A stretch of DNA of 42,164 bases from Phoronis australis. Its lineage: Eukaryota > Animalia > Phoronida. Shown in pieces: positions 8,557-41,220 of the stretch. Location of the stretch: the NCBI GenBank assembly GCA_002633005.1, contig NMRA01000375.1:397244-439407 (forward strand), read 5' to 3'. A model generated the notes under the pieces. It had not been told where the DNA came from. It did not search any database and saw only the letters and a program-made list of their open reading frames with translations. The translations under genes and the position numbers were made by a program. Numbering within the stretch: position 1 is the first letter of the stretch; the number at the start of each line of letters is the position of its first letter.

Positions 8557-10626
8557 TCACTGCCGATTGTTTTCTCCAGGTTTTCCAGCTTTATTCTGTT
8601 CCCAATGTTCACGATCCATATTTGCTTTTTTCTCCGATTCAGCATTCGCTATTATTGTCCTGATTGAGTAGTCAAGATTTACAGTGAAAGGCAAGAACTT
8701 TTTCACGTCACTCATTTTAAATTTCAATTTTTGTTTAGATTCATCTTTTTTGTCAGCTGCCTGCAGGAGTAATTCGAACGATTTTGCGTCATGATCAAGA
8801 CTAAGTAACGCTTTCCAGTCGGACGGCTTGGCCAATTCTTTCTCACATTCTTTGTATATCGGCAGTAGCTCTTTCTCCAAATCTTCTTGAATTGGCTCTT
8901 TTCTTTCACGGTTTTCGTATACACGTATCAGCCAACTCGATCTATATGGCCACTGCTCTGTCAAAATCACCCATCGCACGAGCTTGTGAATTTCATCTTC
9001 ATCCATTTTCTCCCCACTCATCACAAGCTTAAACGTTGCCATCATTATGTTACGGATGCGTTTGATATTTCGCGCGTTAGGTGCAAGAAAGTCACTTGCG
9101 TCTTTCAAACCCTCCATTGCTATTATCAACGACTTTTTCTCATCTTCCCTTTTCTCAGTACTATTTGGTTTCCCATCATGACCTGGATTTCGCTTGTTCC
9201 GACTAACAGGTGGAGAGTCCCTACGTTTAACAGTACCATGCTTATGGACGCCATTATCGGGCATTTCTGTTTTCACCATGGCGTCAATATACTTTATAAC
9301 GTGCTTTTTCTTGGGCAACGGTATGCAAAAAGGCAGGTGAATGATTTTTTTAAGATACTCGTGACCGTTAATATTAGCATTTAACAGCACTTCGGGGAAT
9401 GATTGCTCGATAGCTTTCACGACAATTTGTGGATCAATGGCAACTAACGAAATGAAGGGCAGCGTGTTATCGGACAACAATATATTAACTGCTTCCAGAA
9501 TCTTGTGAATTTTGTGTTTTTCTACTCTGTCTAGATCGTCAATGATTATAAGTAAGCGATAATGTGTTTGGTATAAGAACTCCATATATCTAATAAAATC
9601 CTTGAGGAAGTATACTTCTAACTTGACTCTGTTCATAAATCCTAATTCCTTGTCAAAATTTGAACGAGCCAAATGCCTTTTCATCCGCAGTACACGTTCC
9701 GCCTCAGATTGACATAGGGAACTAATCAAACCCGCGGTTGTTTTAATTATCGGTATTAGCGCTGTAACAAAACCCACAAGCGCTACGCCAAATAGGAGTT
9801 GCTCGCGCGTGGCTGGGGGCGTTGTTTGGGCAAATTTAAACATTACCATTACTGAAAAAATAAATATGAAGATTATCAAGAAAATGGTAAAGGAATAGGG
9901 TATCCCTAGACAGCATTGCCGCTCTTCCAGCACAAGATTTGGTTGTGATCCGGGTGTCTTGTTTTCTTCCTGGGTTACCGGGTTATACCCCCCACAGCAT
10001 GACCTGAAGCAAGACTTGTCTGCGACTCCTCTGTTTTCAGGCTCAGTGCCCTCGGTGGCTTCGCCTTCAACAAAGCCGTCAATGTCCTCGGTGGCTTCGC
10101 CTTCAACGAAACGGAACAATCTAGTTTTCCAGAAACCGAATTCTTGTTCTACAACATTACAGATGTTTGTAACAATGCCAGCCCATAGAAGGTCAGAACC
10201 AGCGAACTCCCAAGCATTGAAACGAGCTTCAATCACTTTTAAGTTGCTTGGGATTGATTTGATGTCCGTGGTGCGTCGTTGATGATATGGTCGTTTGAAA
10301 AACACGAGTAACAGGACTTTTTGAAATTCATAAAACATTTTGCATCCACCGTCACAACAACACTTAACCAAGGCGACCAGAACAATTCCGGCGGAAATCG
10401 AAATGACACATATTTCACATGAAAGTTTTTGTGAGATTGTCGCGCTTGCATTTCCTGTTGTGTTGCTTTTGTCACAATATCCAAAAAGCGAACCTCCGGC
10501 AGCTGCGACTGCACCGGGCAGTAACACGAACAGAAGCAATATAAAATAGGCACATACTGGTACGTCACACGAGAAAAACCTGCACAATTTTGTCTTCATT
10601 TGGCAACAGCTTGAGGCTTGCGATTC
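8557..10626 (-). CDS. Large terminal exon of an NKPD1/Kidins220-like KAP-family P-loop NTPase
   Basis: The 680-aa ORF extends upstream to a phase-0 acceptor, ttctatcaacAG|GAA (10627/10626). It has the KAP motifs FNAWEFAGSDLLWAGIV, LGFMNRVKLEV, Walker B LLIIIDDLDR, NGHEYLKKIIHLPF, PNARNIKRIRN and WVILTEQWPYR. Two pairs of hydrophobic TM-like segments are inserted in the NTPase. Confidence 0.93.
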   Translation of the reverse strand, partial: ESQASSCCQMKTKLCRFFSCDVPVCAYFILLLFVLLPGAVAAAGGSLFGYCDKSNTTGNASATISQKLSCEICVISISAGIVLVALVKCCCDGGCKMFYEFQKVLLLVFFKRPYHQRRTTDIKSIPSNLKVIEARFNAWEFAGSDLLWAGIVTNICNVVEQEFGFWKTRLFRFVEGEATEDIDGFVEGEATEGTEPENRGVADKSCFRSCCGGYNPVTQEENKTPGSQPNLVLEERQCCLGIPYSFTIFLIIFIFIFSVMVMFKFAQTTPPATREQLLFGVALVGFVTALIPIIKTTAGLISSLCQSEAERVLRMKRHLARSNFDKELGFMNRVKLEVYFLKDFIRYMEFLYQTHYRLLIIIDDLDRVEKHKIHKILEAVNILLSDNTLPFISLVAIDPQIVVKAIEQSFPEVLLNANINGHEYLKKIIHLPFCIPLPKKKHVIKYIDAMVKTEMPDNGVHKHGTVKRRDSPPVSRNKRNPGHDGKPNSTEKREDEKKSLIIAMEGLKDASDFLAPNARNIKRIRNIMMATFKLVMSGEKMDEDEIHKLVRWVILTEQWPYRSSWLIRVYENRERKEPIQEDLEKELLPIYKECEKELAKPSDWKALLSLDHDAKSFELLLQAADKKDESKQKLKFKMSDVKKFLPFTVNLDYSIRTIIANAESEKKANMDREHWEQNKAGKPGENNRQ
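10049..10111 (-). repeat. In-frame 36-nt-period duplication within the KAP exon
   Basis: cctcggtggcttcgccttcaac occurs twice, 36 nt apart, giving FVEGEATEDIDG-FVEGEATEG. Confidence 0.9.
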
Positions 10627-11940: not shown

Positions 11941-12250
11941 ATACTTGGTAAACTAAAAGGGGTTTCCCAACTTTCAACCAATGAGAATGACTAAATGCTA
12001 TGATGTTGTGTTCATTACCTTATAATAAGAAGCCATGTTAAACAAATACAACATTCAACAGTGCTACGAAAAGTAGCGAAGTGAAAGATTGTAGCCATAG
12101 AAATTGACAAGGCACCGGTAATAAATTACCACCTCTGTCATCGCGGGTGGCATATGGAAAAAAACTGCAATGAGGCACCTACAGGCGTAATGGTTATTTG
12201 TGGAACTAAAACAATTGGCGACCTTACGCAGCTCGCCAGATACGACTTGC

Positions 12251-12460
12251 CTTCTTGTTTTTCTTGCACTTTTCACTTAAGAGGTTCAGTAGGAATGTCT
12301 TTCCTGCGCCCCAACTTCCGTAGACCCCTATCGTAGTGCCATTTGAAATACGCTCGTCCCGTACCAAATCCTCGAATGCCTTTGCGTAGACGTCATACCC
12401 AAGTTCGTCAGTATTGTTTGAAGGTCCTTCGCTGACTAAATCCCACTTTGAATCTACACC
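12251..12460 (-). CDS. KAP NTPase Walker A exon (not in ORF track)
   Basis: Manual translation: GVDSKWDLVSEGPSNNTDELGYDVYAKAFEDLVRDERISNGTTIGVYGSWGAGKTFLLNLLSEKCKKNKK. The exon is 210 nt, with acceptor ttgtattcAG|GGT (phase 0) and donor AAG|GCAAGT (phase 0). Confidence 0.9.
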
Positions 12461-16529: not shown

Positions 16530-16576
16530 CATTTTTTTCCGTCGATCACCTCCAGTGTCCTGCTCGATGTCTTCTC
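16530..16576 (-). CDS. Probable 47-nt exon of the KAP gene
   Basis: Acceptor cgtttctAG|GA, open frame (R)EDIEQDTGGDRRKKM, donor ATG|GTAAAA. Its phases (1 in, 0 out) exactly bridge the 17654 donor and the 12460 acceptor. Confidence 0.6.
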
Positions 16577-17653: not shown

Positions 17654-17945
17654 TGGGGCAGTCGGGTTCAGACAGACCTGTACCGTCACCGACTGGAGGG
17701 CCACTGGACTGGTAGAGTTGAGGTTTGTTAAGAGGTGTGTCGTTGGTGACGTCGCTGGCACTTTGGACTTGCGAATGGATTGCAGGGTCGCTTTGCACAT
17801 GTCCTAAAAATATCAAACTGTTCGATTGACTCACCCGCATCGGAACCGGACTCATGGGTGTCTGGGTGCTCACTTGACTGGTCGCCATGACGGTTGCCCA
17901 GCTGATCGTCGTATGTGTCTTTGGTGGAGTCGTTGGAATGTTACC
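17654..17945 (-). CDS. Probable Ser/Thr/Pro-rich linker exon of the KAP gene
   Basis: Open frame GNIPTTPPKTHTTISWATVMATSQ...SEPDCP with a strong donor CCCA|GTGAGT (phase 1). The acceptor is either cattcgtAG|GGT (17945) or a phase-1 site at 17980 that would include an in-frame TAG. Confidence 0.6.
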
Positions 17946-19115: not shown

Positions 19116-19220
19116 CTGGTGGACGTGCCTTTTTCGGTTCTAACTGTACGTCTTCCTCTTCAGAAATTTGTTGCCCGGAAACGCTTTCTTGTTCTGGCTT
19201 AGAAAGACCAATCTTTGAAC
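19116..19220 (-). CDS. Possible 105-nt symmetric (phase 1-1) charged exon
   Basis: Acceptor ttctgccacacAG|GT, frame (G)SKIGLSKPEQESVSGQQISEEEDVQLEPKKARPP, donor CCAG|GTGGGT. Confidence 0.5.
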
Positions 19221-21084: not shown

Positions 21085-21190
21085 GATCTCGAGATTCCGA
21101 CTTAATCATCGCGAGTTCTCGAGACCATGGCTTAGTTATCTCGGGAACTTGGTATCCGGAATTAATTATTTCAGGATCTCGAGATACCCA
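21085..21190. repeat. Short ~30-33 bp repeats with palindromic TCTCGAGA cores
   Basis: atctcgagat, ttctcgagac, atctcgggaa and atctcgagat recur at roughly regular spacing. Confidence 0.5.
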
Positions 21191-21360
21191 GACGATTTTC
21201 GTCTGTGTTTCGCTGTACGTTAGCAGGACTTGATGATGATGCCAAAAAAGTGTAGACCTAAAGGTCAACATTTTCACACGGGTTGAAAACACTACACCTT
21301 ACATGTATTTGCGCAATGTCTTGAACATTTGATTACCTTCTACGAGATACTCAGGGAAAT

Positions 21361-21595
21361 AGGGATGACTTGATTGAAGATTATCCTAACCTTGGATTAA
21401 AGCACTTGGAAATTCTAAAATTACTGCAAAAATCATGAACAAAAGTTTAAGACAATGAAGGCGCATCTTAAAAAGCCGAGTCATAAGTAGGGGAAGTTAT
21501 AAATACAATATTGGTGCTGTTCGTGACGCTGTCCAACGAGAACTGAAAGCAAGAGCAACAAATCTTGGTTATCATGCCATGTGCAGGGTCCATGG
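21361..21595 (+). pseudogene. IS3EU/Clr5-like transposase N-terminal relic
   Basis: RDDLIEDYPNLGLKHLEILKLL...SLRQ*RRILK...VRDAVQRELKARATNLGYHAM. This fits the remembered YFxLGxxxxEI...SLRxLKRxL...GYRxM pattern. Confidence 0.5.
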
Positions 21596-21600
21596 GATTA

Positions 21601-21952
21601 ATATGTAGTTAGTTGGTTGACATTCAATATCCAATAGCTGCTCCATCTGGTGGTCAGACGGTCACTGGCAAATACAGCTAAGATTTAGTTGGATGACATC
21701 CAACATTCAATAACTGCAACACCTAGTGGTAAAATGATCGCTGACATACACAGCTAACATGTAGTTAGTTGGTTGACATCCAACATACAATAGCTGCCCC
21801 ACCTGGTGGTCAAATCATGAAGTTATACAAGGGATAGATAGTTCGGTTGGTTGACATTGAACGTCTAATAGCTGCCCAACTGGTGGTCAAATCATGAAGC
21901 TATACAAAGGGCAGATAGTTGGTTAGTTGGTTGACATCCAACATCCAATAGC
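21601..21952. repeat. Minisatellite, about 5 units of ~70-83 bp
   Basis: Repeated agttagttggttgacat(c/t)caacatccaatagctgc...ctggtggtcaaa. Confidence 0.85.
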
Positions 21953-24818
21953 AAATTTTAATTTAATGACTAAGAAAACAATATATTTTTAAGGAAAAGA
22001 AGTTCATTGGAAAAGTAAAACATGTTCAAAAAGAAAATCTTATAAATCAGTTTTGTTTTTAAAGTGGAAAATATTGAAAATAACAGGTGTTCGTAAAATA
22101 TCAGATATAAAATAATTGAAAAAACTGAATGTGAAACTGGTTTAAAACCAAAATAAAAGCACAATCAAATACAAAATATTTTGCTTTTTGTCTCCATTTT
22201 CAGATGATTTGAAAATGAAAAGCAGACCTTTGCTGCTACAGCTCATGAGTTCATGTGGAGAACTTCTTGCTTATACTGGTCACTTCTCAGATTCCCTTAG
22301 CCCCAGACAACTTTTATGATGCCTTGCAGCTCGACCTTTGTATTGATGTAGATCTGAGCTAATGAAGTTGAAAGGTAATAGGTAGCAATGCTGTCTCAAC
22401 AATGGTGCTTGTTATTTTACCTAAGTTGGTTGTGGAGTTGCAGCTGAGACTGTTTATGGATTGCAACTGTGGATAGTAGTTTTAACTTGTTGAATTAAAT
22501 ATCTCAAAACTACTAAAAAGTTAATTTGTTTTTAACTTGACTATGGGCCATTTCCCAAAGAAACGATGGTTTTAAATATGGTTCAAACCAGATTTTGTAA
22601 TTTCATTTTTAATGCTCCTGTCTTTTTCTCTTATCGGGAAAGAGTTGGTCGATATCTTTTAATTTATTCTTAAACTTCAAGCACCAAAACAGTGGTATAT
22701 TTTGATTGCCGGCGAAACTTAATTAGTCCAGTTAATTGTGAACCCATCAATAAATTTTCCAGATCACAGCTACACTAAACATTTCACTACAGGTGTCATT
22801 AGTTTAAGTTTAGTTTTTATTAAAACTCAAGCCATAAAGTATACACTAAAGTGCAAATACTGTATGATGATAGCCAAATTGAAGATTTGGAATATATGGA
22901 CAAGTTAGGTTGCACTGACTATATAACTATTCTACTCTTTTGTCAAGTCATGAAACTGAGAGGGCACAATTTAAATATACATTAACTGTGTCCGAGTTAA
23001 AACTCTGGTTTAACAAGATTGAAAGAATATTAAAAGAATAATCCATGTGATATTCTTTTAATATTTTTTCAATCCGTGTGCTGTTGTCAACTTTGTTCAG
23101 TGTTTATAAATCAATAGAGTAGATCAATACCCACGGTCGCTTATCTTCAATCGTACCTTATGTTGGTAGTTTTTATCTTATTAGTTCATCGGTTTTTACA
23201 AATCGGAAACCTTAATTGGTTGTTTTTTCCAGCTGACTACCGCCGTGGTGTTTGTCTTTAACGAAAGTTATTTGTTAATGCATTTTGAAAATTCGTCAGT
23301 AAGCACAGGCAGATATTTTTGCTACAATTTAGGGTTCGGGTAATTACAATTAATTGGGTGTTTCTCCCATGCATGGAACAATGGGATCATCACAACTGTA
23401 GTGTTCATTCACTGTCAAATTTTACAGGACTATAGGTCTATTATCGTCCATATACAATCACTCATTGATCGTTTGTGCTGTCTAAAAGATACAATGTTTG
23501 TAAACAGAAACTTAATGAGCATGTAGTGATATGACCCCACACAATAGACTAGGTTGGGTAGGCCATTGAGCTGTAGATGGGCGAACAAAGGATTAATCTG
23601 GAGTGAACACTCATAATAGAATAAGTGATCACACTGATACCAAGGAAAATGTAGTAACAAAAGATTAAAGTGAATTCTTAACAACAAATACAGATCCCTT
23701 ATAATCCTGGATGGAGACTGTATGGAAATGAAATGCTTTGTTCTAAAGTTGGTGCATGAATTAGTGCANTGAACACTCATAATAGAATAAGTGATCACAC
23801 TGATACCAAGGAAAATGTAGTAACAAAAGATTAAAGTGAATTCTTTACAACAAATATAGATCCCTTATAATCCTGGATGGAGACTGTATGGAAATGAAAT
23901 GCTTTATTCTAAAGTTGGTGCATGAATTAGTGCACAGAGAATGGCTTCAAAAACATGTCAAGATAAACAGAATATTTGATTAGTGAAGTTTGAGGCCCCA
24001 CTTGTGGTCAGAGTTGAATTTTACATACATTTAGTTTTGATAACTGTGAACTTGAAGCCTTTATTAATGCGCATGACATGGCTTAGGAAAAAATGTCAAG
24101 AGCCGAAGACAATTTGATTGTTGAATTTTCTAACTGAATGTCACTCATGGTAGGTGCAGTACCTGTTGACTTGTACACCTACATGCCCTGTATTTATGTG
24201 TACACAACAATTAAGCATTCTGCTATTCACAGGCTTGAGTTTTGCATTTTCTGCTTGATTTGATCAGCACTGTTTATAGGGACTCTCAGCTGTCTGAACT
24301 CGGATCCCACGTCATCTACTAAATAACGGGCATCTTAATGCATTTTGTTGCTGAGAGAAAGTTTGTATACTATCACCCCATCTACTAAATAACGGGCATA
24401 CTCTGTGTATATGGCTATATTTGATACAACGGACAGGAGTATTTGGGGCCCCTCAACGAAGTTAGGGGCATATTGCGTGTAAGTGACTACTTTGATGCAA
24501 CTGACACCAGTAGTTGGTTCGCATCCAACCGACATTTTCTTCCGTGCTATCCTAGAGGAGGCGCCACTTTCCTAAATTATTTGGTGTAGTTTCCTGTTAT
24601 TGTATTGCGACGGGAAATTCTCGCATCTAATTTACTGTCCAGTACATCGAAAGCAAAATAATACTTACGGTATTTAAAAGATGTTCAAAATTTTGAAATA
24701 GAGAACTGTTAGTATCGTGAGTACTTTTAGCAATGCTACTACCACCCGACCACATAACAACCGACATGGCGCAACTTTTGTAAAAGCACGCTTGCGTAAT
24801 GTAAAATAAACCCTGTTA

Positions 24819-25800
24819 CATAGGCGGATTTAGGGTGGGGGGCAGGCCCCCCTGGCTGCCGCAAAAAATAAAACAGCAAGAACGTAGGGAAATGTTGAGT
24901 TTATTAATTAACCCCGGTAATTAACATTATACGGCTGAAACAAGATTTAAATGTGTGCAGTTTTAGTGTATTTGAGGGGGGGGGGGGAGATTTCAGATTC
25001 AATTTCACGTGTCAAATTCGGTACACGGCGCAATCGTAACGGAACGATGGCCAAGTAAAGGTTCTCCCGCGATATCCCAGGCGACCGGCAGTGGCGCTAC
25101 GCACTACGACTCCGTTTCCGTCGTCTGCTTCTCTGTGCAATGAAGAAAATTACTTCATTTTTTAAAGAAAATGGAGTCTGAGTGACGATGAAAAAACAAA
25201 AGCTGCTAGTAAGATATGAATTTTAATGGAAGCCTTAGTGAATCACTCAGAAACTCATAATTCTCTCTTTTTCAAACCTTAACTTAAGACGTTTTCCAAA
25301 TTAATCGCGTCATTAATGCCAACACAAAAAAGGATTTGGTCTTTTGGGCAATTGAAGACTATTTTAAATACAACAAATTTGTTACGAATTGATTGCACAA
25401 AGTACAAAAAGTGTAATAATCATTACAAAAACAAGTAGGTTTTGCACGCAAACGCTGTGGACCATAAACAAGTAGGTCTTTTCGTATTAAATTACGTGTG
25501 AAATTGTGGTGGTGCAGCAGTAAAGATCGCGCTCTCTATTAGCCAGGTCGTGAGTTCGAGTCGGCTTATTGCAGTTTTTCAAGCTTGACACGTTCTCCGT
25601 GTTTTTTTCTTGGATAATACTTCAGGAATCAAGAAAAATGCTTGATCTTTAGAGGAAAAATATTCCCTGAGCAGGTGGGGGGCTAAACTCCCCTTCCGAC
25701 CTCCCCCCATTCGGTGCTATGCGCATCTACAATCGTGCTTTGCGCAAATGTTTACAGACTAAATGTAGGCCCCTCTTGTGATATCCTAGATCTGCCACTG
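24819..25800 (+). mobile_element. Complete non-autonomous DNA transposon with 5-bp TSD
   Basis: Imperfect TIRs CATAGGCGGATTTAGG / CCTAGATCTGCCACTG, flanked by TGTTA at 24814-24818 and 25801-25805. Confidence 0.8.
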
Positions 25801-28068
25801 TGTTACTTATTGTTAAAAATTTTATTTTAAACTTAAAAGTTGTAAATCGCATTTAGCTTCTATAACAAACGTTCAAGTTAGATTATAATAAAAACTCTTT
25901 GATGTTGAGACAACAACACTTAGCAAATGGGGAGTACGTACATGATGACAGTGGATGCTTAGGATATCATATTGAAGCATGCTGGATTGTTTGAGCGAGG
26001 TGGAGTTTAAAATGTTGATTGAGGATTGGGTAATTATTCACTGAGTGGCTGTTCTTATGTCCGTATAAGTTGTTGTTTGCATCTCCTTCCATCTGGGAGT
26101 ACATACACCCGATTTGTCAATCACAACCTTGTCAGCTCCACGGAATTTCGGCATTGTTTAGTTGTTGGTATAAGTGTTTGGTAGACGATAAAATGTAAGG
26201 CGTGTGGATTTCTACTGTGCACTACTTTGTGATTCGTCCGTGTAATATCAAAAAATTGCGTACTAGGTGTTTTTAACCAATCGTGTCGTAACGCATTCCA
26301 GGTCATGTGAGAAATGACGTTATTGCTTCACGTCATTCTTTGTATCAAACGGACAATAAACTATTTGAAAATATAACAAAACCGGATCATTGGGAAATGC
26401 ATGTCGCGTAGCTTTTCCGATTACTGATAAAAATTGCCATTTTTCCACAAGATGCCCAATATATCTGTATTACTAGTACAACTAGTACTACATGTGTTTT
26501 CAAGTTTTGACTGCATTATATGTACAGGTATAAAGTTTTCGATTTTTGTGTCTGTGGTTTTGCGTGTGACATACATTTGGATGTCAGTGTTTTGTCAATG
26601 TGAAATGTAAAATGCAATTCGTCTGCAATAGAAAGGGCATATTCTATCAACATAGTCTGTTTTCAAATGCCAACCTCTCTCAATTAATGAATCGTGGTTT
26701 CCACATCGAATAGTTTGGATAAATACACGTTGCAAACTAAATCAAATGCATACAGTAGTTAGGGATGTCGAGAGGGTGCGGAAAGGGAGGCCCACAACCC
26801 CAGGCCCGTGGCAATTAAGGCCATCTTCAGTGAAGGGAAAAAAACGGCACAACAAAAAACAAAAGTTCCAAAGGTTTGGGCTAGTCGGCCTCAGATAACT
26901 CAGAAACCTATGAAGGTCCCTCAAAATTTTACGGGTGTTGAAAGCAGGTAAAAGAAGAGACGATGTAGATTACGTGCCTGTTTGTGTTGTATAATATGGG
27001 CTGCCTGCATTATTGCTATGAAATGAACATGGAAAAACTGCTTTTGCAACATGGTTTGTATTATAATTGCCCTGCGATTACAGTTGTACATACATACTAG
27101 ACCAGTTACAAAATTACTCATGGGAACCAAAAAATGGCCAATTCACCAAAAACCAAGGAGTCATCAGAACTAATGTGCCAACCCTTTTCAGTCCTTCAAC
27201 AAAATATCATTTGTAGTGGACATAAACCCTCCTACAATCACATAAAACAACTTTTGATTTAGACAACTAAATAGGCATTATTTCCTGGTAAGTTTTGAGC
27301 AATTTAAGAATTTCAAAAGAACTGGCAATATGCAATCGGTTGAGACCTGGCTCTATAAGATGGCTTGTCAGATAGTGTGTAATTTTATACACCCAGCATG
27401 GTCTCGGGGAATAGCAAACTGTTAATTCGCTGCAATTCCAGAAATCATCTCCAATCTGGATAAGGAACAAATTGAGAAAAGTTTATAGAGGTAAATGGTC
27501 TCAATCAAATTTTTTTCTCCTGGACGGAATGTGGCTTTACAACCCAGGCAGAAAGATAAGTGAATAAAACCAGCCTAACTGTAACAGGGGCTCAAATGTC
27601 AGAAATAAATACTCATTAACAAACAAAAATCTATAATGGTAAATAAAATGCAGAAACATACATTTAGATCAAGTACACAATTTCAAGAAAAAGAAACAGT
27701 ACAATGGTCAGAAATCATCTAAATGTGTTGGCCACCCTGAGAATTCCTGGCAGACCAAAAAATCTAGTGGCTAAACAAAAGGAACAATGTACCATTACCA
27801 TGTAGCTGTACCTACTCAATCCACTGACCCAGGATCATGATCGGTGGCGGGACAAAAATTCAATTCAGGTAAATTTAGATATGTGCTGTTCACGCAGCAG
27901 TTCTTGTGCAAGCAAAGCTTGCAACAACATACAAGCCTACTTCCCTACACAGCTGTGCTGATATACCCCCACTGGTTTTAACAGATCAGCCAGAGTATTT
28001 ACAGGTCCATCGACTGTAGTGTTTCCTTCCTTTGAATTTTTACAATGCTACATCTTTGACAATCTTAA

Positions 28069-30035
28069 GGTAGGTGTATACATGTACACTGATCAAATCT
28101 CCAGGTTCTTAACTAAAATGAGTAAAAGGGAGTTTTAGCTAGTTAGACATGACTCTGAAAGTGACAAAAATCGAAAAAAAGTTTTGTTTGTAGTTCGTTT
28201 TATAAAAAAATCGAATTTTTTAATTTCCAAAAAATCCAATTTTACCTCGAATTTCTTTTTAAAATGCACAGGGATTATCATCAACTGTTTCCTTACGCAA
28301 TATTCTACTTATCCATACCAAATATATGTACAAAATCATTATGATCTTGATTTTGTGGCATTTTTTGTGTGTGAGATGGGGCAAGCACGCCACTTTTTGT
28401 CATTTGGTCACGTTCCGTCTAATAACTAAAAATCTGGTCCATTTATCAAAAAACCCTGGCACGCGATTTTACTTCAGTCCTAGAGGATTTCAAATTTGCA
28501 ACTTTCGTAAAAATTGAACCACGTGTTGTGGAAAAATAAGCCCGAGAATCTTGTCACTATCCTGAAATCACGAGCCGAGAAAAACGGCTTTGAAGTTAAG
28601 CGGTCATCGATTGCCACTTGAGATCAAATTTCGTTCAGAATGCGTGGTCATTATGTTCCAATTTTTGTTGAAGTACTAGAAATAAAGCTTATATTTACTT
28701 CATATTTAGAAAATGTGACACACCTGTTTGTTAACAGTGTAATTTTAATCATTTTTCGAACTTGTGAAGCACGACAGACGACCAAAACAAATATGGCTGT
28801 CACGTGGGCGGAGCTTAGCGTTGATCTATTGTCTGCTGTACTGGTGTGCCGATCACACATTAAAACCATGTGTTGATTGTTTATACGACTCATCTGAACT
28901 CTCCACTCAGTTTGTAAAAGACTCTCTAACTATATTACACAGACCTGTTTGTTAGTTTTCCAATATTATCATCAACCAATATATATGTTATATCAAATCG
29001 CCGCGTTACTGCCTACATAACAATATTGGCGACGAGGATAAAGAACTACTTTCATAGTAATGGTTCAACATTTTTACGTGCCTGTACCGAATGGACTTTG
29101 GGATAAGAAAATATCACTTTCTGCGCAAATAGCGCCGTTTGGGTGAGGTTCTCAAGTTACTTAAGTTTCTTATATTGCTTTCCTCTAGAATTGTATAATA
29201 TCATGAGTTTTAATTCAGGGTTACGTTTGAATCTATGCACTAGAAAATTTTTTGTTATGTTGAACATTGGGTCATTTCTCTAATTCTTTGGGTTACGGCC
29301 AGTGGCAAGTTAAAAATCCTCTGGGTTTGACAGCATAATTTCTCCACGGCGCGTTCCCAGCACAGAAGCACGGTTTATCTGCGAAGACTCTACTCTGACG
29401 GCAAGTAGTTGTCCATGTGTCGCGCGCGCGGCTTGTCTTCACAGCGGGTGCATGCACTCTCACCGAATCGTGCAACACCACCCACGTCGACACTCAGCGT
29501 CCTCTCGCAAGACACCTGACCTTATATTACCGACTTCTCTTATACATGCACAATTTCTGCACGGACTCCTCAAGAGTGAGTGCAGTGATGGCTTTGGTAG
29601 GGCTTGGCGTACTCAACTTAATGTTTTTGCAGATAGACAAACAGGCTCAGGCTCGGAACAGGAGCTAGTTCACCATTTCACTACCAACTTTCACATGATC
29701 AAGAATAGAATTGTTTTATTCTTGGTCTTGCTACAACACCAATATCAGCTGGTACATCACTCTCGATTGCCCGGTTACGCAATGCTTGTTGACAGGGTTA
29801 GATTAGAGCTAGTGTCCTTGTATATAAGCTCCGCCCCAGTTGTCAATCACTGAGCAGGTGAGCACTCAAGCCATATGACTTACTGAGGCTTGGTCAAATA
29901 TAGCTAAAAAACAACTTTGGATTTTCATAATGATTTTATTTTTCTTTAGTATACTGTGCATCAAGAATTAAAGATTAGGATGACATAAAAGTGTAAAAAA
30001 CAGTCAAAATTAATTTTTTTGTGTATCCACCTACC
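28069..30035. mobile_element. Non-autonomous TTAA-specific DNA transposon (Kolobok-like)
   Basis: TTAA|GGTAGGTGTATACA ... TGTATCCACCTACC|TTAA. The TIR matches at 13 of 14 bases, with TTAA at 28065-28068 and 30036-30039. Confidence 0.85.
28730..29039 (+). mobile_element. Gypsy-like LTR 3' end with tRNA-Ser primer-binding site
   Basis: ...cataaCA is followed by atatTGGCGACGAGGAT (29027-29039), complementary to the 3' end of tRNA-Ser(GCT) (ATCCTCGTCG-CCA). The left boundary is approximate. Confidence 0.55.
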
Positions 30036-30599
30036 TTAAGTAATCGTGAACCTGTTGCTGAACCACCCTTTGTGGGAATAGTTGATAAACGTTTCCGTGT
30101 TTCTCAAGTTGTGAGCCCTTTGCTGACGTCATGTACGTTATCTGTTCGCCTGCAGCTGGCGCAGCGATTAGTGTGAATCGTTGGATTAGTTGAATTGTGT
30201 GTTTCGTGTCTTTCAAGTTGTGAGCCTTTTGCCAACGTCATGTGCGCTATCTGCTTGCTAACAGGGAAGGAGGTATAAAGGAAGACGGGGGGGGGGGGGN
30301 NNNNNNACGAGTCCGAAGATCTTAGATTCTAGTGACACTGTGTCTACTACACATGATATACGTGACGATTTTAATCAATAATAAATTGATAGTTTCTGTT
30401 TGTTCTAACAGGACTCGATCAAAAAAAGGAATATTCGTATAACCACTACATTGCAATTTAAATGTCTCGTCCTCATTCGTCTCATCCTCCTGCTTTCTGT
30501 TGTCTATTGGCACTGGTGGTGGTTCTTCACAAGCGGTATAATAATAGAATAACATAAGCCACATTTCATGGTGACTGTGGACGAACAATGCATTGGTCG

Positions 30600-30643
30600 T
30601 CATTGACATTGCTCGGAGAACATGTCATCTGTGCAAGGCATAC
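30600..30643 (-). CDS. Possible short terminal exon after the RHIM exon
   Basis: Acceptor cattgttccacAG|GT is phase 1 and compatible with the 30923 donor. It reads (G)MPCTDDMFSEQCQ*. Confidence 0.35.
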
Positions 30644-30922
30644 CTGTGGAACAATGGCGCTCGTCTGCCTAAAAATCTTACAATAGTTTAATAAAAATCA
30701 GTTTGGACAAAAGCGACTACTGACTTGCTATATAAAACCGAAGGACTAAGCGGCCGCCAGTGTCACATGAACTGTTTAATAAAACTGTTCTTACAATTGT
30801 ATACGATGACAGAATTGGACTTTTAAAGAATGTGTACATGTAATGTCTTGAAAGTTTGAGAGGAGACAAAAGTAACATTAATTTACGAGTACTATGTTTA
30901 AATAATGAGACTGTGTCATTAC

Positions 30923-31195
30923 CTTCTTTGATTGTGCTTTCGGAGCTCCCATCTGATGACACACCCTGTTCCTGACCAGATGGTCCCTTTGGGATTGAAC
31001 GTCCCTTTTGTTCATGCTCGGCCCTAACGTATTCTATGTCTTCTTCGCATTGATTAACATTCATTGTGTTATAGTTTCCAATCTGGACGTTCCCTGTTTT
31101 ACCCGAAAAAGTGACCCTTGGAGAAGTCGCATACTCAGGAGTGTTTGAAGTACCACTAAAAGATTGTCCGCTACAGTCTTCGTTCTGTATTTCAT
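30923..31195 (-). CDS. RHIM-containing exon (273 nt, phase 1-1)
   Basis: Acceptor attatattccAG|AT and donor GAAG|GTAATG. Translation: EIQNEDCSGQSFSGTSNTPEYATSPRVTFSGKTGNVQIGNYNTMNVNQCEEDIEYVRAEHEQKGRS...STIKE. The VQIG core is at 31077-31088. Confidence 0.8.
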
Positions 31196-31486
31196 CTGGA
31201 ATATAATCATATGCTTACATAGACCAGCACTTATACTTATTTTTCTGCTCAAAGAATGAAAATCTAACCTGGCCTTTTATTCTCGCAAAATTGGTCTCAC
31301 AATACCGCTTAGCGTGAGAGATACGTATACTTTTCATTTCTTAAATTTTATTTTACGGGTACAGGTAAATATTGTAGCTAACATTCACTGCTCAGAAATC
31401 GAATTAACAGTTGGGCAACAAGTAAATATTGCACAAATGAATTATCATAGAAACAATTAAAAACAGTCATAGTTGATGCAATTACA

Positions 31487-31815: not shown

Positions 31816-34800
31816 ACTTGGCGGAATTCTTCAAATTCCGACAACTATGTTGCTCTGCCATCAAGTTTGTTTTTACTTTTAAATTTCGCCAAGTATGTCG
31901 GTCTTCCACCAAGTTTTTACTTGGCGGAATTCTTCCGCCAAGTATGTTGCTCTGTCGTCAAGTTTTTTTATTTTTACTTGGCTGAATTCTGGTCGCAGTT
32001 TTCGGCCGATCCGCACGAAATTTGCACACGACGTGTAGATTGGAAAGTCGTGGAAGCCTATTGTTTTTGGTTATGATTGGATACAAAATGGCGGACGTGG
32101 CGGCCATTTTGTATCCGATTTCACAATCAAATGGTCGTAGAGGCCGCATTTTTAATGTACCTGGCTGAAAATCAACACGATTATACTACAACGCATGTGT
32201 TACAACTGTGCAGAAAATCGTTGACTTCCAGTCAAGGATGGCGGAAAAATTGGAAGTGGTGCATGCGCACCCCGAAATATGGCCAAAACGTTTTCTCCTG
32301 TAGAGGCGCATTTGCAAAGCAATCACTTTCAAACTGGTCACGTGTTTGTTGAGTTTAATAAGCTTTTGTAAAAATTTATTGAACCGGAAGTCACTTTCAA
32401 GATGGCGGATGTGGCGCATGTTCACACGGTTTCAATCGTTCTGCTGTAGCGTTTTTAACGGGAAGAGCAAATGACGTGAACTTTTGCATGTGGATTCCTT
32501 TAAGTATGGCCTTTCAAAATGTCTGTGAGAGCGTATTTCTCAGACTTACCGTTTTCGAGTTATTTGACTTTGAATTTCAGAAAAAAACCCGCAAATTTTC
32601 AATTGTTTCGAAATTTTTTGGATTTTTGCCAAAATATCACCTTAGACAGAGTTTTGAACGGGCTTCCATAAGATATTTTACATTTTGCGCTACGATCTCT
32701 CCTTTTTGAAATATTGGAGATTTTCGGATACTGTTGTTCCTTCGGTCAGCTATGCAAGCACGCAGCTGGCTGGCTTTCAGTTCACTTTGGTTTGGTTATG
32801 CCTAGTTGACCCCGACTGACCCAGCCAGCACTGTCCTACTGTAGACTGGAATTCCAGGCCAAATACTTTTAACTTTGCTCTGCAGACTGTCACATAGCGC
32901 CACCTATTTTGGAATGTGGGAACAAAGCATGACTCGTCCGTCATGTTGCGCCATCTATTGTTCTTTATTGTAGTTGATTGTATGCTCTCTATTTGATTTC
33001 TTCGCTAGTCAAATGAATGTTATGGTGCTATTCATAATTGCCGCCTTNTTTCTTCGCTAGTCAAATGAATGTTATGGTGCTATTCATAATTGCCGCCTTG
33101 ATCGTCATGATTGTCGTCGTCCTCACCATCGTCGTCTTTTCTATTAATTCCGCCAAGTGTCGCTCCTCCGAGCGCTCTCGTTTTTTTTGGTTGTCCGCAC
33201 GATACAGGTCGCAATTTTCGTCCGATCATCACGAAATTTACACATAACACGTAGTTCCAGAAGTACTAAAAGCCTATTGTTTTTCGTCAAAATCGGATCC
33301 AAGATAGCGACTGTGGCGGCCATTTTGTTTTCATTTTAAGATTCAAAGGCTTCTGAAGGCTACAATTTTTTACGTACAGAGCTGAAATCAGCACAATTAA
33401 TGGACCTGATGTGCACTAGAGGTATACAGGAAATTGTTTACTTCCGGTTAAAGATGGCGGATATATCAGTGATCGGGCATGCGCACCTCGATTTTGGCCT
33501 AATAACGTTTTCTCCTGTACAGGGCGCATTATAAGACAAATTCCTTCGAATTTTTACAGGCATTAGTTTCTTATGACATGCTACTACACAAAGCCAAAAA
33601 ACCGGAAGTTGCTTTCATGATGGCGGATCTGGCGAATGTTGACCCCTTTTCAGTCGTTCTGGAGTGCAATTTTAAACGAGAAGAGAAAAAGACGTGATTT
33701 TTGGCATGTGGATTTTTTCAGGTATACTCTTTCAAATGGCATGTACAATTTTTTTCTCAGACTTAGCGTTTTCAAGTTGTTAGACTATGAATTTCATAAA
33801 AAACGTAAAATTTCAATTTTTCAAAAAATTAGGCGATACCATCAATTAAGATAGAATTTTGAACGGGTTTCAGGTGGTGTGTTCCATGTTTCGCTAGGAC
33901 GTCTACTTTTCGAGTTATTTGAGATTTTCTGATAACGCTGTTCCTTTGTTGCGCGCTTTTGCTGCATTGATGTTGGTTTATCTTCAATTGAACTAGACTG
34001 TAAACTATTTCTTATAGATTTATGACATCTAAGTTCGTCATATGAATGCTGTGATGTTGTTTCTCATCGCCACCACCATCGTCATTTTCGTCGTCATCGT
34101 CATCATCTCCGTCGTTGTCTTTTCCGTTAATTTCGCCAAGTGTCGCTCAAGACTGTAGCCTTTTTCTTACTGACTTCGGACTTCTACGTTCGTCATGTGT
34201 ATGTTATTATTACTTCTTTTGTTCATCCTCGCCACCATCGTCGTCATATTCGTCGTGTTCGTCATCATCTTGATCGTCATCTTTTTGGTTAATTTCGCCA
34301 AGTTTCGCTCCTCGGAGCGCTTTCATTTGTTTGTTCGCACGATACAGATCGCAATTTTCATCCGATCATCACGAAATTTTTTCATAACACGTAGTTCCGG
34401 AAGTTTTGGAAGCCTATTGTATTTCGTCATAATCGGATCCAAGATGGCGGCTGTGGCGGCCATTTTGTTTGCATTTTCAGATTCAAAGGCTTCTGGAGGC
34501 TACAAAGCTGAAAATTGGCACTATTGTTGGACTGGATTTTCTCTGCAGGTACCCCGGAAATTGTTCACTTCCGTTCAAAGATGGCGGAAATATTGGCAAT
34601 CGCGCATGCGCACCTCGATTTCGGGAAAAAACGTTTTCTCCTGTAGAGGGCGCATATAGGGCTAATTCCTTCGAAAATTTCCAGATATTAGATTTTAATG
34701 ACTTGCCATTATATAAAGCCCAATAACCGGAAGTTGCTTTCAAGATGGCAGATCTGGCGCATGTTGACCCATTTTCAGTCGTTCTGAGGTGCCATTAAAA

Positions 34801-37037
34801 CGGGATAAGGAAATGACGTGAATTTTTGCATGTGGATTGTCTAATGTATATTCTTTCAAAGGAACTCTAACAATTTTTTCTAAGAGTCACTGTTTTTGAG
34901 TTATTTGACTTTCAATTTCTTAGAAAAACGCAAAATTTAATTTTTTCGAAAAATTTACGAAAGTGCGTGAAAATATTATTTTAGATAGAATTTTGAACGG
35001 TCTTTCAGATGACATCTTTCATTTTTTGCTAGGACTTCTACTTTTTGAATTATTCGAGACTTTCTGATAGCGTTGTTCCTTTGTTAAGCGCTCTTACTGC
35101 ATTGATATTGGTTTAGCTTCTATTGAACAAGACTGTAGCCTATTTTTTACTGATTTATGACATCTAAGTGCGTCATATGAATGTTATAATGTTGTGCAGC
35201 ATCATCACCATCGTCATCATACTTGTCATCTTCGCCATCATCTGCGTCGTCGTCTTTGAGTTTACTTCGCCAAGTGTCGCTCAAGACTTTAGCCTATACT
35301 TACTGATGTCTGGCCTTTACGTTCGTCTTGTGAATGTTATAATTACTTGAATTGTTCATCATCGTCACCATCGTCGTCATATTCGTTATCTCTATCGTCG
35401 TCTTTTTTGTTATTTTCGACAAGTGTCGCTCCTCGGAGCGGTTTCATTTTTTGTTTGTTTGTTCGCACGATACAGGTCGCAATTTCCGTCCGATCATCAA
35501 AAAATTTACACATAACACGTAGTTTCCAACGTTCTGGAAGCCTATTGTTTTTCGTCATAATCGGATCCAAGATGGCGGATATGGCGCCATTTTTTCATTT
35601 TAAGATTCAAATGCTCCTGGAGGCTATATTTTGTACGTGCAGGGCTGAAAATCAGTACAATTATTGTAGAAGACACGTGTTAAATATGTACCGGAAATTG
35701 TTAACTTCCAGTTAAAGATGGCGGAAATATCGGCAATCGCGCATGCGCACCTCGACTTTGGAAAAAAACATTTTCTACTGTAGAGGGCGCATTATAGAGG
35801 CAATTCCTCCAAATTTTTGCAGGTGTTAGTTTCTTATGACATTCTATTATTCGGATCTAAAAAACCGGAAGTTGCTTCCAAGATGGCGGATTTGGCCCAT
35901 GTTGACCTATTTGCAGTCGTGCTGGGGTGCCATTTTAAACGGGAAGAGAGAATGACGTGAATTTTTGCATGTGGATTCTTTGAAGTATAGCCTTTCAAAT
36001 TACCTCTAACAATTTTTCTCAGACTTACCGTTTTCGAGTTATTTGACTTTGAATTTCTTATAAAAACGCAAAATTTCATTTTTTTCGAATAATTTACGGA
36101 ATTGTGTGATACTTTCAATTGAGTTTTGAACGGGATTTCAGAAGATATTTTTCATTTTCCGCTACGACGTCTACTTTTTGAATTATTCGAGATTTTCTGA
36201 TAGCGCTGTTCCTTTGTTGAGCGCTGTTACTGCATTGATGTTGGCTAAAGGCCAAGTATGGTGCCAAAATGACTATTTTTATATCTAAAATACATTACAT
36301 ACCCCAGTCCTTAATTAAGTAGGCCTTCGACAATACAGTAGCCCCATCACGAACCACATTTAGCGCCAAAAAAACTTGAGACGGCGCTCGCGTCAATCGA
36401 AGTTTATGACATCATCGTTACTACGAATTTGGCTTTCACCGTGTCTCCACAGTATCGGAATCAGCGATGCGATGACTGGCCATTTACTTTAGTGCAAAAT
36501 ACGTGGAAAATCAAGGAAACACACTAATTTTTCATTTCATGTCAGTTAATATTAAAATTGATCAAAATTATTTCCTTTAGAATTTTTTATTCAATTATTT
36601 AGCACGTATTCTATTACGGGCCCGTATGGTAATCCCCGGCAGTGACTGGGGCCGTCGAAACAGCCTGAAAAACAAAACGCTTCGTCTGAATTGTTATCAG
36701 CAATTTCGCAATGTGTATTTTAAAGAGTAATTTGCTTGATACAAAAACTTTGATGTTAGGAACTTAGGATTCATGTCCTTTTGAAGCCCAAGGTGTGAAC
36801 GCTGCGCGATTTCAATACGGGCGGCTGTCGAGTGAGTGTCCCGTATTGGTATAGGCGACAATAGGCCATTTAATTTGGTGCAAAATACTTGGAAACGTTA
36901 CAACACATATCAGCTTGATGTTTTCGCACAAAGCAATTAAATAATCAAATTCATTGAAAACTTTATATTAGAAACTCAATTTTCAAAATTGCCTTGAAAT
37001 GCTGCAACCCGTAGCCTAATCGCCGCCATTTTGACTC

Positions 37038-37255: not shown

Positions 37256-38329
37256 CTGGGTCAACCTAAAAAATTGAACATTTAATACACTGTAGCAACA
37301 CAACATTGTGAGTGGCTGTAAAAAATTAAAACTACGAAATAAAGTCGGAATTGCATGAAAACCTAACCAAATTTAAGAAATTGTAATCAATTGAACGTTT
37401 TAAATTCAGTGTCAGAATTCCGTTAGGCCAGAATATTCCGGATTTGGGCCGGATTCCTTATACTCTGGGCCGGAACAGTAACACGGAACATCGAAGTGCA
37501 CACTGCAAATTTTGTTTTGAAGCCAGCCAGCTAGCTGTTTGAGGACTATCGCCAAAATACAGCAAGGTAACACTGTGAATTGAGCTCCGTATAGTCTATG
37601 GTTAAACCACGAAATCTCATATACATGTAGGCCGGGTACGAGTTGTGTTAGTCACCTCGTCGTGAAACTTATATGGCAGGGCCAACGACCAACGGCCGGG
37701 GTGCATGCAAAATCTGGGAGACTGACAATTCAGACACTCACCTTGCCCGTTGGCAGTTGTTTACGGGAAGAACAATCTAATAAACGTAATTTTCTAACAT
37801 TACTTTGCGCCTTTTGAGTTACGTAACAAAGAAAGTATGTCGTCGTTTTAAAAACAGCACGATCGTGACACGCGCACGCGCCGTACTAAAATTTTGCGAC
37901 TTCTTTTGGGACATGATGACAGCTTCGTAGCAGTAAATTTTGTTCTAAATTCGGTTTGCTGGTCTTAAAAATGCTAATAACTTGTAACGAAATGAAACCA
38001 GTTCCTGCAATTTGTTGTGACAGTACGCATTCGCGTGGCAGCAAAGAACAGTTGATAGAAGAATAAACCGGGGGAAAAGAAACTGTTCAGGCCAGGTGAC
38101 GTAATCGCAAAACGCCGACACGCAAGAGCGCACTTCAATTTTAGCAGTAGGCCTAGATGAGCGGTAGGACGATAATTCTTCCAACTCCGGTAATTAATTT
38201 GGTTTACTCAAAGAGCGGTGCAGCTTTTAATGACACTATTTCTGAGTCAGATTTTATTCAGTCATTTTTACCCACATGGACACGAAGCTGTAGATTTTGT
38301 ATAGCCTACAGCTTTGCACCAAGCCTAAA

Positions 38330-38481
38330 ACAGATCTTGCCGATCGGAAAAGTTTGTCGCCAGTCCTTGTCGTGGATACGCATCTATTCCACGCACGGCA
38401 CACGGCGTGCTCGGTTGGGAAGTTGTGCAAATGTATCCTATTGTCGCTGACATTGCTACACCCGCACACCACGCAAAGAGG
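38330..38481 (-). pseudogene. THAP zinc-finger domain relic
   Basis: MPLCVVCGCSNVSDNRIHLHNFPTEHAVCRAWNRCV contains CxxxxC, FP and W. The CxxHF part is degraded. Confidence 0.75.
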
Positions 38482-40117
38482 CATTTTAGCCCAAAGATCG
38501 ACAAGTACAGAACGTTCAAAAAATAGCACTCAGCTGTTACGCAGTGTGGCTTCCCAGAGATTTCGTGGCCACGATGATGTCATATGAACCTCTTTACGCT
38601 GATTGGTTGAGATTTTTTCTGGGGCGCTCGAGGGGGCTACGAATTATGAGCAGTGTAATTTGCGTTGCAATTACTTACTTTCCGTGGTATGTACGAAGCA
38701 AAAACAATATTTTTTATGAACAATTCATACATTTCTGGTGTCAAAAAGGTGTTTTAGCCGCTGGACGCTTTCTTTATGCTTCAATTGAAAAAGACTTTAG
38801 CCTATTTCTTACTGATTTATGACATCTAAGTTCGTCATATGAATGTCATGATGTTTGTTCATCATCGCCCCCACCATCATCATATTCGTCCTCTTCGTCA
38901 TCATCTTCGTCATCATCTCAGTCGTTGCCTTTTCAGTTAATTTCACCAAGTGTCGCTCATTACTTGGCGGAATTGTTCCGCCAAGTATGTTGGTCTGACA
39001 GCAAGATTTTTTACTTAGCAAAACTAATAATATAGATAGAGTTTGGAACGGGCTTTCAGAAGATGTTTTTCATTTTTCGCTAGGACGTCTACTTTTTGAA
39101 TTATTTGAGATTTTTTGATAGCGCTGTTCCATTGTTTAGCGCTCTTACTGCATTGATGTTGGTTTAGTTTATTTGAATAAGACTGTAGCTTATTTCTTAC
39201 TAATTTATGACATCTAAGTTCGTCGTATGAATGTTATGATGTTGTTCATCATCGCCACCTTCATCATCACAATCATCATCCTCGTTAATTTTGCCTATTG
39301 TCGCTCAAGACTGTAGGTAGCACTGAACAGTCAGTCCGCAGCCACGGAGCATTTTCTAGTCCCTAGAATTTATGTTGAGGGCGTGTGTCAGGTTTGGCGG
39401 GTGTTTTGAGGAAATTGTTGGCAAAAATTGTTGCCAGGAAACTTATTTACTTGTGTTTTTGAATGAGAAAAGCCAAATTTTACCTACTTTTGATGCAAAC
39501 TGGTGGCTGTCATTTGCTATCAACCCCGACCTGTCGTCTGCTGTCCTAGAAACCGGGTGCGATTTCAGGTGGCTGTCAGACAGATCAAATTTTCCAAAAA
39601 GAAGCTGGTAAGAATTTAACTATGACCACATAGTTAGAATCTAGTGAGGACGAGCAGTCTGAATCTGTAGTCAGACTCTTTCTAGCACTTGCAGGAAAGT
39701 GGTTATTTCGGGGAGAAAATTGTCAAATTTGGCGTTTTTTTGCAAATAGTTTTGTGTGCCGGGATTTTCTTGCCATGTATATTAACCGATCAGAAATCTG
39801 TACAGTTCGATAAAGTTTTAAACGGACTTCCATGAGATATTTTTTATTTTTTGCTAGGACGTCTTAACTTTTCTAATTATTCGAGATTTTCTGATAACGC
39901 TGTTCCTTTGTTGAGCGATTTACTGCACAGTGATTGGTTCACTGAACAAGACAGTAACCTATTTCTTACTGATTTCTGACATCTTCAGTGGTCATATGAA
40001 TGTTATCGTGTTGCTCATAATCCCCACTATCACCATCAAAATCGTCATCGTCGGCGTCATCTCCGTCTTCGTCTTTTGGGTTAACTTCGCCAAGTGTTGC
40101 TCCTCCGAGCGCTCTCG

Positions 40118-40605
40118 TTTTGTTCTTGGGTCAATCCGCCATTTGTTCCCAGTTCCGTTATGTTTTAACCGTGGCTTTTTCAAGATTCAGAGAATATTCA
40201 GAATTTGTTTTACCTTCTTCCACCCACTGAGATTTACTTCTAACAATCATACCTTTTATTACTTGGGTTTGCAAAATTTCTAGGTTTAATTTGCATTTGT
40301 TTCGACATGTGTATTTAACTACTCGGTCTTTTAATAACTGTTTCTATTGTCTATTTCTAGAACATACGCGTATTTAAATTTGTATTGACTTGTGTCAAAT
40401 TTTCGTTTTTAAAAAATCCCAAGACATCTTTTCATCCTCTTTGTTCTCCGTCATGTAGTGATTAGCAATAATTTCTCCCATCTCATTCGTGTAGTCTTTT
40501 TCAAGAAGTAAGCTGTTATTTAATTTCCTGAAACACGGTCCTGGTTGAGAGTTACCAAGATTAACATTAGGCGTAATAGATGAATGATGCGAATATATAC
40601 AAGAG
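40118..40605 (-). mobile_element. Tx1/L1-clade LINE ORF2 fragment (end of APE plus linker)
   Basis: YSHHSSIT (SDH-like), GPCFRKLNNSLLLEKDY, WDFLKTKI, then after a frameshift IKGMIVRSKSQWVEEGKTNSEYSLNLEK. Confidence 0.85.
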
Positions 40606-40689
40606 CAACGCAGTGCTTTGAGCTGCGCCCACGAATGCAATGTAAACGGTTTGCTTCTGGGGGTGTTTAGTTGTTTCCTAATAATGGCC

Positions 40690-41220
40690 ATTAGATGCCG
40701 CAAAATACGTCGATGGCTTGTACGGCCGCTATGCAGATGTTCTAAAGAAACATGAAATTTAAAAATAATTAAGGTCTGACCAATGTTGCTCGAGACAAAG
40801 TTCCTCCATTTCCGCGTGCCGTTATCGTGTACGTTAATACTAATATGTTTCATTAATGCATACTACAGTGTGTAATGTCGTATTGAAAATAACAAATTGT
40901 GCGTGGTCTGATCAAGGAGAGTAGTACTCTCCTTGGTATGACCATGCTCAATCGATATGAAGTTCGTACATTTCTGTGTAACGTTATCGTATACATTACT
41001 ACTCTACTTAATAAATGCACATTTTAAACTTTTACGGAAAATGACGAATTGTATCGATGAGTGTGATCTAGTTGCATTCGTGGTATATCTGGTTTATGTC
41101 ACAAATCAGCAATCATCCCCATCGCTGGTCAAGTCTTTACTACAAAAGGTTGCATATCACTTAAAATCAAAAAGAGAGTGAGACCCAACAAGGTTGTGTT
41201 ATCTAAGAGTCCCTCCAGAG
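40690..41220. repeat. Diverged copy of the intron/exon junction region at about 17950-18300
   Basis: aaaataattaaggtctgaccaa...aagttcctccattt...gttatcgtgta matches aaaataattaaggcctgaccaa...aagttcgtccattt...gttctcgtgta at 18001. Part of it is tandemly repeated at about 40940-41100. Confidence 0.7.

Follow-up and report, generated by a model that had tools for sequence, protein, structure and literature searches.

On the minus strand of a 42,164-nucleotide stretch of Phoronis australis DNA (hereafter the window; contig NMRA01000375.1, positions 397,244 to 439,407), which is intron-rich animal DNA with a GC content of about 39%, a real, spliced and transcribed exon encodes a RHIM-like peptide, and an intact KAP NTPase is encoded downstream on the same strand (Table 1). 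The reading that we favor, at a probability of roughly 0.45, is that the motif would act as a functional RHIM in the disordered cytosolic tail of a membrane KAP NTPase, the clustering of which would seed a fiber. This probability follows from the two parts of the reading. We consider it likely that the motif is a working RHIM, and we lean, with a little more reserve, toward assigning its exon to the KAP gene. The tail is taken to be cytosolic because it precedes the P-loop.

Table 1. Features of the minus strand discussed in the text, with positions in the window and the basis for each.
Feature	Position	Strand	Description and basis
RHIM-like 20-residue peptide	31056..31115	-	VQIG tetrad at 31088-31077, then N-Y-N-T-M-N-V; translation and PF12721 (13.5 bits)
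Coding exon with the motif	30923..31213	-	phase 1-1, 291 nt, or 273 nt from acceptor 31195; RNA donor, ab initio
Predicted next exon	19116..19220	-	phase 1-1, 105 nt, acidic low-complexity linker; top ab initio exon, diverged-copy continuation, X3 sense depth
Predicted linker exon	17654..17803	-	phase 1-1, 150 nt, alternative donor 17678; ab initio only
Predicted 47-nt exon	16530..16576	-	phase 1-0, closes the frame to the P-loop exon, ends in ATG; ab initio, picked by phase
KAP NTPase exon, Walker A GSWGAGKT	12228..12460	-	PF07693, 44.1 bits; donor GT after 12228 or GC after 12251
Terminal KAP NTPase exon	8557..10626	-	four hydrophobic helices, Walker B IIIDDLDR, stop at 8557; acceptor 10626 or 10579; PF07693, 87.9 bits

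The peptide, which reads VTFSGKTGNVQIGNYNTMNV when 31115-31056 is translated, had been reported in the initial annotation without a strand, and it is indeed present, on the minus strand. According to the accessible portions of two papers, RHIMs have a core tetrad of consensus (V/I)-Q-(V/I/L/C)-G (PMC9444067) and an Asn-x-apolar C-terminal extension with unstructured flanks (PMC4262963). Here the tetrad occurs as VQIG and the extension within G-N-Y-N-T-M, such that these two parts of the pattern originally proposed stand. The third part, an upstream hydrophobic strand, may correspond to V-T-F, 7-9 residues N-terminal to the core, but Pfam aligned only model positions 12-21 of 22, leaving out the N-terminal half of the model. 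For the 20-mer and for a 39-mer, Pfam lists no family other than PF12721 (RHIM), which scores 13.5 bits for the 20-mer (E 0.053), 11.8 for the 39 aa and 10.2-10.3 for the exon against a gathering cutoff of 20, a curated value that is uncalibrated on true invertebrate RHIMs. The PF12721 scan suggested with the initial annotation thus does return a match, but one below the curated cutoff, and calling the RHIM canonical was too strong for such a score and such a short alignment. Because of the score, we class the peptide as RHIM-like and not as a member of PF12721.

Seven sites in the six frames of the window match the loose tetrad, and only the one in this peptide is followed by xxN-x-apolar. 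In Markov simulations of the window (150 for each of orders 1 and 5), the strict pattern arose on average 0.033 times per window at order 1 and 0.027 times at order 5, and together with an upstream hydrophobic strand 0.0 and 0.02 times, respectively; shuffling the residues of the exon produced the pattern at 1.25e-4. The match therefore exceeds what chance would give in a single window, but not what it would give in a scan over many windows. These figures bear on an alternative that we consider unlikely, namely that the exon does exist and codes for a disordered, rapidly drifting linker of the KAP gene product, in which the resemblance to a RHIM is accidental or a relic and has no amyloid function. 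With about 3% of simulated windows holding such a pattern, a large scan will meet such matches, and in 245 proteins (265,510 residues) the same regular expression also picks up two sites that are not RHIMs, in helices internal to the KAP domain; the subthreshold Pfam score points the same way. On the other hand, the motif is read in the frame of a genuine exon, and neither that exon nor the disordered tail has another hydrophobic island.

The description of the exon as S/T/E-rich and disordered holds up, as the flanks of the motif are rich in S, T, E and G and are predicted to be disordered, with FoldIndex values of -0.26 before the motif, -0.31 after it and -0.20 in the linker exons. A phmmer search against PDB sequences gave no match at E 10, and the ESM Atlas gave one match, at 0.76, which is below the lead threshold and hence uninformative. 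The AlphaFold2 single-sequence prediction of the exon (mean pLDDT 39.9) draws three strands over the motif, which carry no weight at such confidence. Several isolated tyrosine motifs (YDYI, EYAT, EYVR) flank the RHIM-like core in the low-complexity tail (31213-30923) and are possible phosphotyrosine docking sites.

The frame around the motif is open from stop to stop for 165 codons (31214-30720), and its first Met, at 31064, is the M of the motif itself, so that an ATG-started ORF track misses the core, just as had been pointed out initially. In splice-site scans with our own approximate consensus matrices, the exon 31195-30923 (phase 1-1) is the second-ranked ab initio locus of the minus strand above 10.7 kb. 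The RNA data comprised three raw RNA-seq runs (X1-X3) and one contig set (X4), all under the same species label. At 90% likeness over 11450-31400, repeats dominate, the exon bins are nearly empty (depth below 0.5 in the RHIM and P-loop exon bins; 0.05, 0.05 and 0 for the latter), and no joint between any two modelled exons is listed. At 80% likeness over 30350-31400, reads about 85% identical to the window cover 30921-31045, and ten of them from two runs (3 of the 22 aligned in X1 and 7 of the 24 aligned in X2) part from the window at 30921, corresponding to the predicted donor 30923|GT plus two letters, GT, common to the next exon. The first mates of these reads lie on the plus strand, which would mean minus-strand RNA if the libraries are stranded as usual, strandedness being off the record. 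The exon, the expression of which had been named as a point on which its case depended, is thus spliced and transcribed.

At the same donor bin, two X3 reads with the window's own letters appear from bin depths to end, and these may be one fragment. Two X1 reads, again judged from bin depths and possibly one fragment, end at 31214, and for this reason we tentatively place the acceptor at 31213 rather than at 31195, although our matrix scores 31195 best (5.4, versus -0.1 for the AG before 31213). As such, the claim of good splice sites is confirmed by RNA for the donor, and the 5' edge of the exon is less sure. Read ends at both of its edges mean that the exon is real and that at least one further exon lies upstream; none was found in the window. 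A further X2 pair, oriented the other way, crosses the intron and probably stems from DNA or from antisense RNA that was not spliced. Separately, the minus strand at 30440-30521 carries an acidic stretch (..EEPPPVPIDNRKQEDETNEDE..) that looks like an exon, being in phase 1 and following a pyrimidine-rich tract, but has CG in place of the acceptor AG. It is either a decayed exon or an assembly error; a 36-letter part of it matches a few reads, which then run on unlike the window.

Most reads over the motif exon come from a diverged copy that is about 85% identical to the window. An X4 contig of 224 nt covers 30936-31045 with 17 differences, and its 111 letters upstream of 31045 fail to align to the window at 80%. 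The flank of the copy has 15 differences in 13 codons, of which 9 alter the residue and 4 are silent; counted as letters, there are 11 non-synonymous to 4 synonymous changes, a near neutral ratio, which speaks for a string that is accidental or decayed. Translated in frame, the 30 letters of the loose ends at 31045 give xAC-V-M-N-I-A-G-P-T-N-K in X2 and xAC-V-M-N-I-P-G-Q-T-N-K in X4, where the window has N-T-M-N-V-N-Q-C-E. Judged by these sequences, the diverged copy appears to keep the N-x-M-x-[VI] half of the motif, followed by a net two-codon insertion. The retention of V-M-N-I in both versions despite their differing neighbor residues argues against a chance match, as does one X3 read that aligns only to the motif core (31087-31056), a single 32-letter match which may itself be due to chance. 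Conservation, which had been proposed as a check on the motif, is seen only for the C-terminal half (xAC-V-M-N-I), as the 30 letters stop short of the copy's tetrad. A search among proteins of 52-168 aa found no relative of the motif exon.

The predominance of these reads also raises the question of whether the window copy is a silent or decaying paralogue, with the ~85% identical copy as the working gene. The depth of less than 0.5 at 90% likeness in the RHIM and P-loop exon bins would fit this, as would the CG where an AG is expected in the exon-like stretch 30521-30440. However, no stop interrupts the predicted exon chain, including its 689-codon terminal exon, both Walker motifs are intact, and the few X3 reads that carry the window's own letters stop at the donor, so we regard a silent window copy as very improbable.

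Two KAP NTPase exons lie 18.5 kb downstream of the motif exon on the same strand, both of them above the PF07693 cutoff of 20 (Table 1), and they have the Walker A and Walker B motifs with transmembrane helices between them that mark a KAP NTPase. A possible GC-AG intron is found at 12251 on the minus strand (AAG|GCAAGT), in the right phase for the strong acceptor 10626. When the motif exon, the three predicted exons and the two KAP exons are joined into a six-exon chain, the result is an open frame of 949-951 residues with no internal stop in either variant. In this model, the motif is at residues 36-42, Walker A follows about 200 residues later at aa 239, Walker B is at 621, and hydrophobic segments are at 285-303, 333-351, 506-524 and 537-555.

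We infer with moderate confidence that the motif exon is spliced to exon 19220-19116. This exon and exon 17803-17654 are both of phase 1-1 and are ranked high regardless of phase. Past the splice, and after a G whose codon spans the junction, the diverged copy continues as ASVGCTAEPE, which is similar to SKIGLSKPE at the beginning of exon 19220. Compared with that continuation, the start of exon 19220 ranks second among 2310 minus-strand AG sites by DNA and again second of 2310 by protein score, and it is the only site in the top eight of both lists; site 1485 ranks first by DNA and has a negative protein score, the junction match being 30 letters long. In X3, about 220 sense-side bases fall in the bin of exon 19220, where the two reads ending at the donor would leave about 200, as estimated from bin means. 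The subsequent joins, from 19116 to 17803, on to 16576 and on to 12460, are ab initio predictions.

Since exon 16576-16530 ends in ATG, a potential start for a short-headed KAP, the RHIM could also belong to a separate gene. In this alternative, which we do not think likely, the RHIM is a true one and its exon sits in a gene of its own further upstream, such as one for a death-fold or kinase adaptor, with 5' exons beyond the window, that ends in exon 17803 read through to a stop near 17598, and the KAP gene starts at the ATG at 16532-16530. With such a start, Walker A would fall close to residue 55, similar to the short-headed KAPs of tunicates, where it is at residues 50-59, and there is no RNA joint past the first junction. 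RHIM adaptors are also common in lancelets, according to the accessible part of PMC4262963. An AATAAA stands at 17076 on the minus strand, but this hexamer is frequent in the AT-rich DNA of the window (9 copies in 5 kb). Further evidence against a separate gene comes from the good phase-1 donors of exon 17803 (7.4 and 6.6) and from the good acceptor (6.4) and open acidic frame of exon 16576. In addition, a Pfam scan of 105 ORFs of the upstream minus strand, together with 129 others (of at least 30 aa upstream and 42 aa downstream, a threshold that shorter exons would escape) found no death, CARD, DED, TIR or kinase domain.

Much of the region above 31.2 kb is filled by a repeat with a unit of ~1.13-1.22 kb, present at 31900-36300 and 38800-40130 as four or more copies in tandem along with partial ones, 60-89% alike. 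Each ~1.15-kb unit contains a degenerate triplet tract that is Asp-rich when read on the minus strand and has no Pfam match, and the repeat is probably a non-autonomous mobile element or a satellite. On the minus strand, 38257-38529 holds a THAP domain fragment (22.1 bits versus a cutoff of 23.9) that is likely a transposon remnant. We also take the broken ORF pieces at 40161-40862 (minus) to be a LINE-like mobile-element remnant and those at 14869-15437 and 5829-6660 (both minus) to be transposase-like; none of these pieces has a Pfam match. Single Ns at 33048, 23769 and 18780 are followed by a repeat of the preceding 51, 28 and 15 letters, respectively; these are scaffolding duplications and hence local artefacts in the assembly.

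The window protein has PF07693, Walker A and B and two helix pairs inside the P-loop domain in common with Kidins220/ARMS, NKPD1 and the KAPs of Lingula, lancelets, tunicates and hemichordates. Its best relatives by BLASTP, however, are only about one-third identical (Lingula 32%, lancelet 29-33%), and it differs further in its disordered N-terminal tail with the RHIM-like motif, its intact Walker A and the lack of ankyrin repeats among the window ORFs scanned. No NACHT, NB-ARC or repeat family is listed for the NTPase of the window, which is a KAP. In a quick tree of 55 rows (the window and 54 homologues picked by hand from 237), the window falls outside the Kidins220 clade, which has 100% support, and outside the NKPD1 clade, and it groups loosely with Lingula and five other rows (support 82, below the starred level). 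With no ankyrin match in those ORFs and a position outside the Kidins220 clade, the protein is not classed as a Kidins220/ARMS orthologue. The placement suggests a divergent, probably invertebrate, KAP lineage. To our knowledge, little is known about the function of animal KAP NTPases other than Kidins220.

The domain that precedes KAP in animal proteins varies and can be ankyrin, C2 plus ankyrin, PF04721 plus ankyrin, or none. From a set of 245 KAP proteins, a Walker A-like motif was located in 168, and 150 of these have at least 60 residues before it; none of the 150 has a tetrad with xxN before Walker A. An architecture of RHIM plus KAP is therefore not a widespread family in these data, and the fact that no KAP relative among those compared carries the motif is a further point for a chance match. 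Two predicted proteins of Branchiostoma lanceolatum, P0035 and P0036, have a KAP NTPase fused N-terminally to NACHT and LRR; they may be real fusions or merged gene models.

Known RHIMs provide a second comparison. Those of RIPK1, RIPK3, TRIF, ZBP1 and Branchiostoma have in common with the window peptide the core tetrad, the Asn-x-apolar extension and the unstructured flanks. In contrast to them, the window peptide is below the Pfam cutoff and its probable host is a KAP NTPase, the window having yielded no kinase, death, TIR or Z-alpha domain. The accessible part of Kajava et al. 2014 (PMC4262963) reports many RHIMs in Branchiostoma, including a RHIM-NACHT-repeat protein, and a figure legend there lists RHIMs together with NACHT, death, repeat, transmembrane and 'other' domains, the last of which may include KAP. 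In the accessible portion of PMC12119088, RIPK1-like RHIM proteins are described in lancelets, Lingula and the zebra mussel, with C-termini that activate NF-kB partly via the RHIM.

Fungal and bacterial systems offer the closest parallel in arrangement. Excerpts of two sources (PMC7889193; bioRxiv 10.1101/2020.01.06.895854) describe NWD2 and the BASS-NLRs as proteins in which an NTPase clusters an N-terminal amyloid motif. The NWD2/HET-S, PNT1/HELLP and BASS-NLR pairs and the lancelet protein BF82280 likewise carry an amyloid motif on the N-terminal side of a P-loop NTPase with the potential to cluster it. Unlike in these NLR amyloid signalosomes, the NTPase of the window is KAP and not NACHT or NB-ARC, it has a four-helix membrane anchor and no C-terminal repeat sensor, and the motif is ~200 aa from Walker A instead of at the extreme N-terminus; nor does the window contain a neighboring effector gene with a matching motif. 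The putative KAP-RHIM protein is thus not a member of the NLR/STAND amyloid signalosomes, but it may work alike. Our search of the full-text literature, which covered main texts with few subscription papers, found no description of a RHIM-KAP pairing, and the accessible part of PMC7159879 contains none of KAP, RHIM or amyloid as a whole word.

A role in defense would be in keeping with bacterial KAP proteins. The accessible parts of three papers state that phages are blocked by KAP NTPases of bacteria in a manner that depends on Walker B (PMC13552941), that Tmn, of the YobI family and related to KAP, is a membrane decamer (PMC13001434), and that the counter-invader systems of bacteria can use KAP instead of a STAND NTPase (PMC8195603). 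PifA and EF_KAP (PMC13552941) and Tmn (PMC13001434), as far as these excerpts go, likewise consist of a membrane P-loop NTPase with a variable accessory region, making a defense role plausible. The gene in the window, by contrast, is an intron-containing animal gene, and Tmn is of a different family, so that its decamer serves as an analogy only. Among the KAP relatives in our set, many that are apparently bacterial (P0106-P0237) have what we take to be varied N-terminal domains (TIR-like, kinase, caspase-like, CHAT-like, lipase and Roc-COR-like), which occupy the slot of the disordered tail of the window protein.

One bacterial KAP, P0141 (L002:5001-6953), was tried as BASS3 support. Its N-terminal G/D/V/I-rich pseudo-repeat resembles amyloid signaling sequences in composition, but it has no Pfam RHIM match. 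No ORF with a matching repeat was found within 5 kb, and a scan of genome contigs for it gave only a weak, unrelated match. P0141 was dropped as support because it has no RHIM match and L002 has no second ORF with the repeat. An ORF 3.4 kb upstream of P0141 on the other strand is presumably TIR-like.

By analogy with these systems, we propose that NTP-dependent oligomerization of the KAP domain at the membrane would gather the N-terminal RHIM-like motifs, and that the gathered motifs could then seed a cross-beta signaling fiber with RHIM-bearing partners. Such a fiber might recruit RHIM partners such as RIPK1-like proteins, and its output would be NF-kB activation or cell death through a RIPK1-like kinase. 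The principle would be that of fungal NWD2 and the bacterial BASS-NLRs, except that KAP takes the position of NACHT or NB-ARC. That an animal membrane KAP NTPase is an amyloid-nucleating immune sensor, and KAP accordingly the third NTPase class wired to amyloid signaling after NACHT and NB-ARC, is a broader proposal that we regard as doubtful at present; it would also link bacterial anti-phage KAP proteins to the RHIM pathways of animals.

Invertebrate RHIMs were already known, and what is new here is the likely fusion of a RHIM to KAP. It is the probable link to a KAP gene that makes the RHIM-like exon interesting, the initial annotation having named no gene for it. More generally, short motifs in exons separated by introns escape both ORF tracks and Pfam cutoffs. 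If the fusion is real, RHIM signaling would be set off by a membrane ATPase, whereas kinases, TIR adaptors, nucleic-acid sensors and NLRs are its other starting points. A true fusion would be a direct sign that some animal KAP NTPases are hubs of innate-immune signaling.
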